Source: a virus | Taxonomy: Duplodnaviria; Heunggongvirae; Uroviricota; Caudoviricetes | Strand: one strand, 5' to 3' | Length of the DNA: 36,784 nucleotides | Virus record (IMG/VR): IMGVR_UViG_2778261535_000012 | Coordinates: 1 to 36,784 of that record | Shown here: piece after piece, positions 34,683 to 34,806 of the stretch | Layout of the letters: the number at the start of each line of letters is the position of its first letter | How positions within the stretch are numbered: position 1 is the first letter of the stretch | Translations under genes and position numbers: made by a program | The notes under the pieces: model-generated | What the model saw: the letters and a program-made list of their open reading frames with translations, nothing else | Told to the model about the DNA's origin: nothing | Database searches by the model: none

Positions 34683-34806
34683 CCACAGCCTCACACTCGA
34701 TGAGGCCTGTTCATTTCTCAAGATATCCAGACCTACCATTGCTGCATCAATGCGGCTTTTTATTGCCTGATTTGCAGGTTCGATTCCATATTCGGAGATA
34801 GCACTC

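Follow-up and report, generated by a model that had tools for sequence, protein, structure and literature searches.

A copy of the argW T-arm in the torI leader of a P22-like prophage is a candidate control element of the excisionase

The window (the whole stretch of DNA analysed, 36,784 nucleotides) contains a P22-like (Sf6/HK620-like) prophage that ends on the right at about position 35095. The features of this right end, and of the host flank beyond it, are as follows.

34741..34764, + strand: intrinsic-terminator-like hairpin GCTGCATCAATGCGGC with a T-run, found by a terminator scan, directly 5′ of the torI leader
34772-34787, + strand: 16-mer TTGCAGGTTCGATTCC, an exact copy of the T-arm of argW, tRNA-Arg(CCU)
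34777..34805, + strand: proposed hairpin of the torI mRNA leader (inferred), with the SD GGAG at 34794-34797
34778..34787, + strand: family-invariant centre of the 16-mer, GTTCGATTCC, taken from the invariant columns of the leader alignment
34807-35007, + strand: torI, the final phage gene, encoding the excisionase (RDF) of the KplE1/HK620/Sf6-type module (66 aa, winged helix)
35002-35010 and 35014-35022, + strand: two direct repeats GGGTAAAAT of the P arm, overlapping the end of torI
35071..35095, + strand: attR crossover region, made up of a putative C half-site, the identity block and a putative overlap
within 35071..35095, + strand: putative C half-site AAGTAGATGTC
35081-35095, + strand: identity block (core) CTGCAGGGGACACCA, starting 74 bp 3′ of the torI stop codon
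35082-35088, + strand: putative 7-bp overlap, TGCAGGG
35096..36784, no strand assigned: host DNA 3′ of argW, matching the DNA beside tRNA-Arg in prophage-free genomes and in strain AST215
35305-35457, + strand: DUF4942 fragment in the host flank
35537-36784, − strand: oligosaccharide/sucrose MFS transporter gene in the host flank

The TorI protein of the window was identical over 66 of 66 residues to residues 1-66 of PDB 1Z4H (E=7e-43) and showed 100% identity with HkaC of HK620, gp18 of Sf6 and RefSeq TorI; its Pfam match, to HTH_17, was weak. With an RDF identical to TorI, and with a core, CTGCAGGGGACACCA(T), that matches the argW 3′ end where phage and host DNA meet, the right end of the window belongs to the argW module (IntS, TorI) of KplE1 (CPS-53), HK620 and Sf6, whose P-arm repeats it also shares. 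In these modules the RDF gene and int lie at opposite ends of the prophage, with attP between them in the phage. Neither an integrase gene nor a tRNA gene was found in the window. Strain AST215, which shares the right end with the window at 99.9%, has the order yfdC, argW, intS, a prophage of about 40 kb, torI, core, DUF4942 and transporter; torI adjoins attR in the window, and argW-intS is seen at the left end in AST215.

The P-arm repeats GGGTAAAAT, which are presumed to be the IntS arm-type sites, are unchanged in HK620, Sf6 and K-12 and become GGGCATAA in the g341c and phiEt88 clades; the HK620 record annotates an attP repeat at this place. The published KplE1 core is CTGCAGGGGACACCAT (PMC2951348). 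The core CTGCAGGGGACACCA was unique in the window with up to 3 mismatches allowed, and the putative overlap TGCAGGG rests on the inverted repeat G(A/G)TGTC/GACACC together with TGCAGGGGACA, the minimal identity seen when clades are compared. [quoted passage not shown] These breakpoints show that the attR is a simple one, consisting of P arm, one core and host DNA. A promoter-like site (TTGACG, 18 nt, AATGAT, with an upstream TG) was also seen on the − strand at 35072-35043, in the P arm beside the core and aimed back across torI; an RNA started there could be antisense to torI. On the other side of the gene, the hairpin and T-run, which have an equivalent at the corresponding place in HK620, Sf6 and most other clades, would insulate torI against early-left transcription from upstream.

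The 16-mer TTGCAGGTTCGATTCC was the sole match in the window when 3 mismatches were permitted. The reference for argW was an unoccupied site (L003:941-1015), in which the 3′ part of the gene reads ...CCTAAGGGCTAA TTGCAGGTTCGATTCC TGCAGGGGACACCA, with GGGCTAA as the bases just before the 16-mer. The copy covers the last two bases of the variable loop, the 5′ strand of the T-stem (GCAGG), the T-loop (TTCGATT) and the start of the 3′ strand of the T-stem (CC). The original prediction, that this stretch carries tRNA T-arm sequence, is thus borne out by an exact match to argW. It had also been proposed that the 16-mer and the core come from neighbouring parts of one tRNA 3′ half and have a xis-like gene between them, and alignment to argW agreed: the two pieces adjoin in the tRNA, share one C and keep the same orientation, and in the window they stand 293 bp apart with torI inside the gap. 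The same split arrangement, when sought in related prophages and phages, was found in HK620, Sf6 and K-12 KplE1. ARAGORN found 0 tRNA genes in the window, and Rfam gave no match to a tRNA, even a partial one, in 34600-35200 (E up to 10), nor did it assign the stretch to a recognised RNA family. Therefore, the 16-mer is a tRNA fragment and not a gene, and a tRNA gene or pseudogene at this position was rejected.

Relatives were gathered by tblastn of TorI against phage records, by three scans of viral contigs and an additional pattern scan, and by a profile scan of species-representative genomes, and their RDFs were grouped at 85% identity into 19 clusters. The complete 16-mer was present in about 146 of 147 TorI-clade loci (viral and genome contigs). 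Its centre, GTTCGATTCC (with at most 1 mismatch), was found in the RDF leader of 13 of the 19 clusters, whose proteins have 35-100% amino acid identity to TorI and which come from E. coli, Salmonella, Erwinia, Serratia, Citrobacter, Pantoea, Edwardsiella, Enterobacter and Phytobacter (several Enterobacter/Citrobacter/Phytobacter lineages). The form in most relatives is GTTCGATTCCC; the window instead has an A at 34788. The stretch that matches argW exactly is 16 nt long in the E. coli clade; in Serratia fonticola it measures 15 nt, and in several other relatives 13 nt. The motif occurs as a single copy per module and only on the RDF strand (+), in leaders such as the following.

E. coli clade: TTGCAGGTTCGATTCCCtattcGGAGAT
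Salmonella g341c: ccAAGTTCGATTCCCaaaccGGAGAT
Erwinia phiEt88: gctAGGTTCGATTCCCagcaaaGGAG
Serratia fonticola: CAGGTTCGATTCCTG
Pantoea: GGTTCGATTCCTG
Edwardsiella and P. stewartii: gACAGGTTCGATTCCCTGTc

In Erwinia phage Midgardsormr38 (L004:1986-2015) the motif is duplicated in tandem (aCAGGTTCGATTCCCGT CAGGTTCGATTCCCAc) before the RDF gene, and its copy 1 could form a T-arm-like hairpin with one A/C mismatch.

Among the 12 motif-bearing clusters compared, the mean pairwise identity of the 11-mer motif was 0.957, against 0.718 for codon positions 1+2 of the RDF gene, 0.414 for codon position 3 and 0.348 for four-fold degenerate sites. The motif stays constant although the specificities of the RDF and of the arm sites vary, with no covariation. 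Six clusters with the same target have no motif, namely those of Klebsiella phages, one Erwinia phage, and Proteus, Morganella, Yersinia and Pantoea lineages. The leaders of a Dryocola and an Enterobacter module (L280 and L292) read terminator-ATTGCC(T/C)G|GAGGAAA..ATG, about 40 nt 5′ of the RDF start (3001); compared with the HK620-type leader, a block of about 25 nt containing the motif is cleanly missing and an SD forms at the junction. The six motif-free clusters and these two block-free leaders indicate that the element is dispensable. Retention of the centre across very divergent modules and many genera indicates selection, not decay, and the comparisons argue strongly that the 16-mer is an intrinsic, conserved and selected element of the module.

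In 36 of 41 distinct leaders the motif stands 6 nt 5′ of the SD; it lies 18-20 nt 5′ of the ATG, although the bases between differ among clades. A position so fixed relative to the SD implicates the translation-initiation region. The best explanation of the locus as a whole, mechanism included, is in our estimate about as probable as not (roughly 0.5): a piece of the argW T-arm would have entered the ancestor of the module family and been kept since by purifying selection in the 5′ leader of torI, where it would throttle translation of the excisionase. In the torI mRNA the T-arm-derived tract GGUUCGAUUCC would form the 5′ strand of a small hairpin, in which GGUU would pair with (A)ACC/ACU, the bases just 5′ of the AUG, and AUUCC with GGAGAU (SD), so that the ribosome-binding site is masked. 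Less excisionase would then be translated from leaky or read-through transcripts, which would suit a family whose excision is set off by RDF expression alone.

That the motif acts at the RNA level in the RDF translation-initiation region is proposed tentatively, at somewhat under even odds. The two-tier hairpin GGUU..AUU.CC(N5)GG.GAU..(A)ACC had 91.9% of its cells paired in 22 diverse leaders, compared with 29-61% in slid registers, the model having been derived from the same sequences on which it was scored. Single-sequence MFE structures (-3 to -9.5 kcal/mol) brought motif and SD region together in 9 of 11 leader types, their z-scores lying between +0.5 and -2.2 (mostly 0 to -1, two near -2). 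RNAalifold retained the inner pairs only, with a consensus of -0.06 kcal/mol. Both strands of the hairpin are nearly invariant, so there is almost no covariation and one shuffle control is uninformative. The pairing leaves an invariant internal-loop C and G, as well as the third C of CCC, unexplained, and in the Edwardsiella leaders the motif folds into a hairpin of its own with the SD free.

Other RNA-level and coding roles fared less well. A T-arm stem closing the TTCGATT loop had 48.5% of cells paired, no better than slid registers, and only its inner GG/CC pairs are preserved across relatives; T-arm-like hairpins were confined to phiEt88, copy 1 of Midgardsormr38, Serratia and Edwardsiella. 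A family-wide T-arm hairpin with a 5-6 bp stem was not supported by these figures. When the downstream RDF-attP-int transcript was searched for long-range pairing to the motif in five phages, the result was no better than in shuffles. An upstream mini-ORF encoding ..VRFP.. was dropped because the g341c and phiEt88 leaders lack an in-frame start codon, and an N-terminal extension of the RDF through the motif was discarded in view of an in-frame TGA just 5′ of it (E. coli clade) and of the 66-aa TorI structure.

Instead of an RNA element, the motif might be an integrase half-site mimic, with IntS binding the copy before torI and thereby damping RDF expression or aiding intasome architecture. The motif equals the 10 bp of argW abutting the putative overlap (GTTCGATTCC|TGCAGGG), that is, the presumptive B arm of attB, and tRNA identity stops at the B/overlap junction in most clades. 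It is constant while the arm-type sites (GGGTAAAA versus GGGCATAA) and the RDF sites change, the tRNA target being the only constant; every integrase of the KplE1-type family must recognise the B arm, which would explain why the motif tracks the target only. The C half-sites of many attPs likewise keep TTCGAT in tRNA register. However, scored against a matrix of 20 distinct C half-sites the motif reached 2.56 bits, within the top 1% of random 12-mers, and 740 12-mers in the window scored equal or better. A DNA site would have no need of the fixed 6-nt spacing to the SD, and the position of the overlap on which the comparison depends is itself only deduced. In lambda, core-type sites standing alone bind weakly. 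The attR that recombines in vitro is 135 bp long and starts at primer CTCTTAAGCCGCGCCAATGG, which is window position 34984 (PMC3509656), so that the 16-mer lies about 200 bp outside it; as the TorI sites are on attL, the 16-mer is not part of the known recombination site. A role as an arm-type site was excluded, since arm sites shift from GGGTAAAA to GGGCATAA between clades. We consider the half-site unlikely and favour the RNA reading over it; under either of the two, the element is positioned to limit RDF output.

The motif could also be a functionless relic or linker, a tRNA leftover whose uniformity would come from the leader being a favoured joint for mosaic exchange between phages (a 'boundary sequence'). 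The Sf6 record indeed annotates the stretch as boundary sequence bsq2, mosaic breakpoints lie just 5′ of the motif, and the leader type TTTTTGCCTGGCTTCCAGGTTCGATTCCCAAAC.GGAGATAAAACC is joined to RDFs that are only about 40% identical (L277 versus L136/L143). But at least 10 leader types differ on both flanks and have the motif exact, 10-11 nt is too short for homologous exchange, and the motif is better conserved than the non-synonymous positions of the adjacent gene. A relic is accordingly an improbable account of it.

A third possibility is an operator of TorI, by which the RDF would bind its own leader through GTTCG and autoregulate. The cores of the TorI sites on attL are GTTCG, GATCG and GTCCG (PMC2951348) and the motif contains GTTCG; the HK620 P′ arm has CAGTTCGC, CAGTCCGT, CAGTTCGT, TGGTTCGC and CAGATCGT, and the leader has CAGGTTCGA in the same orientation as these P′-arm sites. 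Against this, clades whose RDF has another recognition helix (GFT(S/A)KYFYSQI) carry other P′-arm repeats, yet GTTCGATTCCC is unaltered in them. These repeats are GATGTAAC/GCGTTAC in phiEt88, ATGTCTAC in three copies in L141 and ACGTCTAC in L136, all three clades' repeats being taken as RDF sites from their position. Furthermore, nothing in the TorI sites corresponds to the invariant ATTCC(C). The operator was rejected on these comparative grounds, as the motif does not follow RDF specificity, and we give it a slim chance, below that of the relic.

Slightly less probable again is a cII-activated promoter of the pI type, in which TTGCCTGATTTGC (34763-34775) would be the cII site and the 16-mer its second repeat plus spacer. 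The HK620 record annotates a 'promoter, phage integration' and a 'cII protein' binding site here, the Sf6 record annotates pI here, and a CII-like protein is encoded in the phage family of the window. The spacing, however, is N5 and not that of the canonical TTGC-N6-TTGC, and the N5 pattern occurs in the window at chance rate (6 found, 3.6 expected); N6 sites are instead found in the immunity region, at 26742 and 26804. The first TTGC reads TTAC in K-12 and many relatives, and the leaders of g341c, L129, phiEt88 and Edwardsiella have no TTGC repeats at all. A sigma-70 scan gave no + strand promoter, and a start downstream of such a promoter would lose the SD. A canonical cII site was rejected for its N5 spacing, chance frequency and poor conservation.

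The original prediction had suggested that the second tRNA piece could mark a recombination scar, a decayed tandem integration or rearranged att in this lysogen. The split of the tRNA pieces and their shared orientation would fit such an event, but the core is present once only (at most 3 mismatches), the 16-mer has a single base in common with it, the arrangement is unaltered in the free phage genomes of HK620 and Sf6 virions and in thousands of lysogens, conservation is well above neutral expectation, and the related genome AST215 has a single prophage between argW-intS and torI. Since the 16-mer is invariant in HK620, Sf6 and K-12 KplE1, the element travels within the phage. The scar was rejected, a second core copy being absent and the 16-mer not restricted to the lysogen, and it is now very improbable; the suspicion of a complex or rearranged att in the window is thereby removed. 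What had been set against it, a 16-mer unrelated to the tRNA beside a single clean core at 35081-35095, proved correct for the core and wrong for the 16-mer, in view of its exact match to argW.

No more credible is a chance T-loop-like motif unrelated to argW: GGTTCGAnTCC is a widespread tRNA consensus, and every non-RDF match to the motif-plus-SD pattern in viral contigs was a phage tRNA gene, but identity is 16/16 including the argW-specific TTGCA (by simple arithmetic 2x36769/4^16 = 1.7e-5 exact 16-mers expected per window, or about 1e-3 if any tRNA 16-mer counts), other clades match 13-15 nt of the same tRNA, and argW is the very tRNA into which these modules integrate.

A tRNA origin of the motif is thus likely. 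Clades extend the argW identity differently, with TTGCA on the 5′ side in E. coli and TG on the 3′ side in Serratia and Pantoea, which points to a longer tRNA-derived ancestor; many clades show TT.CAGG as the extension. The ancestor probably held at least TTGCAGGTTCGATTCCTG, with selection on the centre only. A decayed acceptor/CCA copy 3′ of the motif was rejected, since an ungapped comparison (GGAGATA versus GGGGACA) gave 6 of 14 matches beyond the T-arm, which is not significant. If a rearrangement made the split, it took place a single time, in the common ancestor of the module family. Simple tandem integration, secondary-site integration and a single aberrant excision each failed to yield the order T-arm, RDF gene plus P arm, core. 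The family ancestor may have undergone an illegitimate event or one mediated by Int.

The cores of all 19 RDF clusters are of the argW type. No RDF-attP-int layout was seen around the distantly related IntS-like integrases of the phages YeP5, S1 and VW-6S. Several modules differ at the tRNA end itself. In L143, L145 and L275 the host side after GGGGACA is not CCA (GGGGACATTCTCC, GGGGACAATCC), and the attP of phiEt88 has GGGGACAATT; it looks as if some modules or previous occupants put other sequence in place of the tRNA's encoded CCA end. In Yersinia spp. (L289-L291) a related RDF module has the junction ..AGTCAGTCGGGGACACCA, arm repeats TTGGGGGTGTTATTGGGGGTAT and a leader without the motif, and may use a variant tRNA end. 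In Edwardsiella piscicida (L285) the core ATGCAGGGAACGCCA lies 3′ of the RDF gene and is followed by the P′-arm-like CTGACATCGACC...AATAAAACCC of the L141 module type, which suggests tandem or hybrid elements at that tRNA.

Leader hairpins that sequester the SD and translational operators that mimic tRNA are known, such as the thrS operator. The torI leader resembles thrS-type operators in having tRNA-like sequence directly 5′ of the SD at a fixed distance and a product needed at low level; it differs from them in that no tRNA-like fold is conserved (48.5% paired) and the predicted hairpin is weak. To our knowledge no protein is known to bind the motif. In lambda, xis and int are differentially controlled by the pI promoter inside xis and by sib retroregulation. 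The element proposed here similarly belongs to the RDF/int region, where it is presumed to act in cis on the Int:RDF ratio; unlike lambda-type control, and unlike the pI/cII annotation of HK620, it has a cII repeat that is non-canonical and unconserved, and attP separates the RDF gene from int. The direct repeats of tRNA 3′ ends at prophage and island borders are likewise derived from the target tRNA and oriented as the core. Unlike those repeats and the scars of tandem islands, the 16-mer is not a copy of the identity block, having one base shared with the core; and unlike border repeats it belongs to the interior of the phage genome, is packaged in virions and shows conservation in place of decay.

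In KplE1-type modules the integrase is constantly present at a low level. Rho control of torI is reportedly the subject of work by Menouni et al. in 2013. Excision control depends on RDF expression alone (PMC2951348), and with an integrase always present at low level the silencing and switching-on of torI and its homologues become the key question. The KplE1 papers of Panis, Ansaldi and co-workers describe the 16-nt core, the IntS arm-type sites, five TorI sites on attL, and IHF (PMC2951348, PMC3509656); these accounts of the module make no mention of a T-arm copy in the torI leader. The module, core, arms and RDF are thus already known, and for the stretch itself there is only a promoter guess in two GenBank records. 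The T-arm copy in the RDF leader, the depth of its conservation and its fixed position were not described in the accessible literature that we searched.

An 11-nt element that is identical to the T-loop of the target tRNA, fixed in the translation-initiation region of the RDF and better conserved than the protein downstream is a concrete, mutable candidate for a control point in the well-studied KplE1, HK620 and Sf6. It is also a rare sequence trace that ties an attP region to its tRNA target outside the crossover block. The wider proposal is that the excisionase leader of RDF-attP-int modules directed at tRNA-Arg(CCU) contains a mimic of the attB T-arm, maintained by selection as a dedicated control point of excision, be it an RNA switch for RDF translation or a site at which integrase, having to recognise these bases in attB, senses and limits the output of RDF. 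We regard it as conceivable and rather doubtful; the mechanism is probably a modest one. If the proposal is true, the split tRNA 3′ half (T-arm, RDF gene plus P arm, core) would be a fossil of the assembly of attP and RDF from a tRNA gene.

Upstream of the leader, two terminator-plus-TTTTTATTG blocks (34302-34327 and 34741-34766) were found around an ORF at 34311/34338-34682, which encodes 114-123 aa without any match in Pfam. The first block (GCCGCCTGATGGCGGTTTTTTATTG) sits directly against the torI leader in the HK620 and Sf6 genomes, and the ORF therefore looks like a moron-type insertion at the boundary sequence. Its 3′ part and the terminator resemble sequences of HK022, HK97 and 434.
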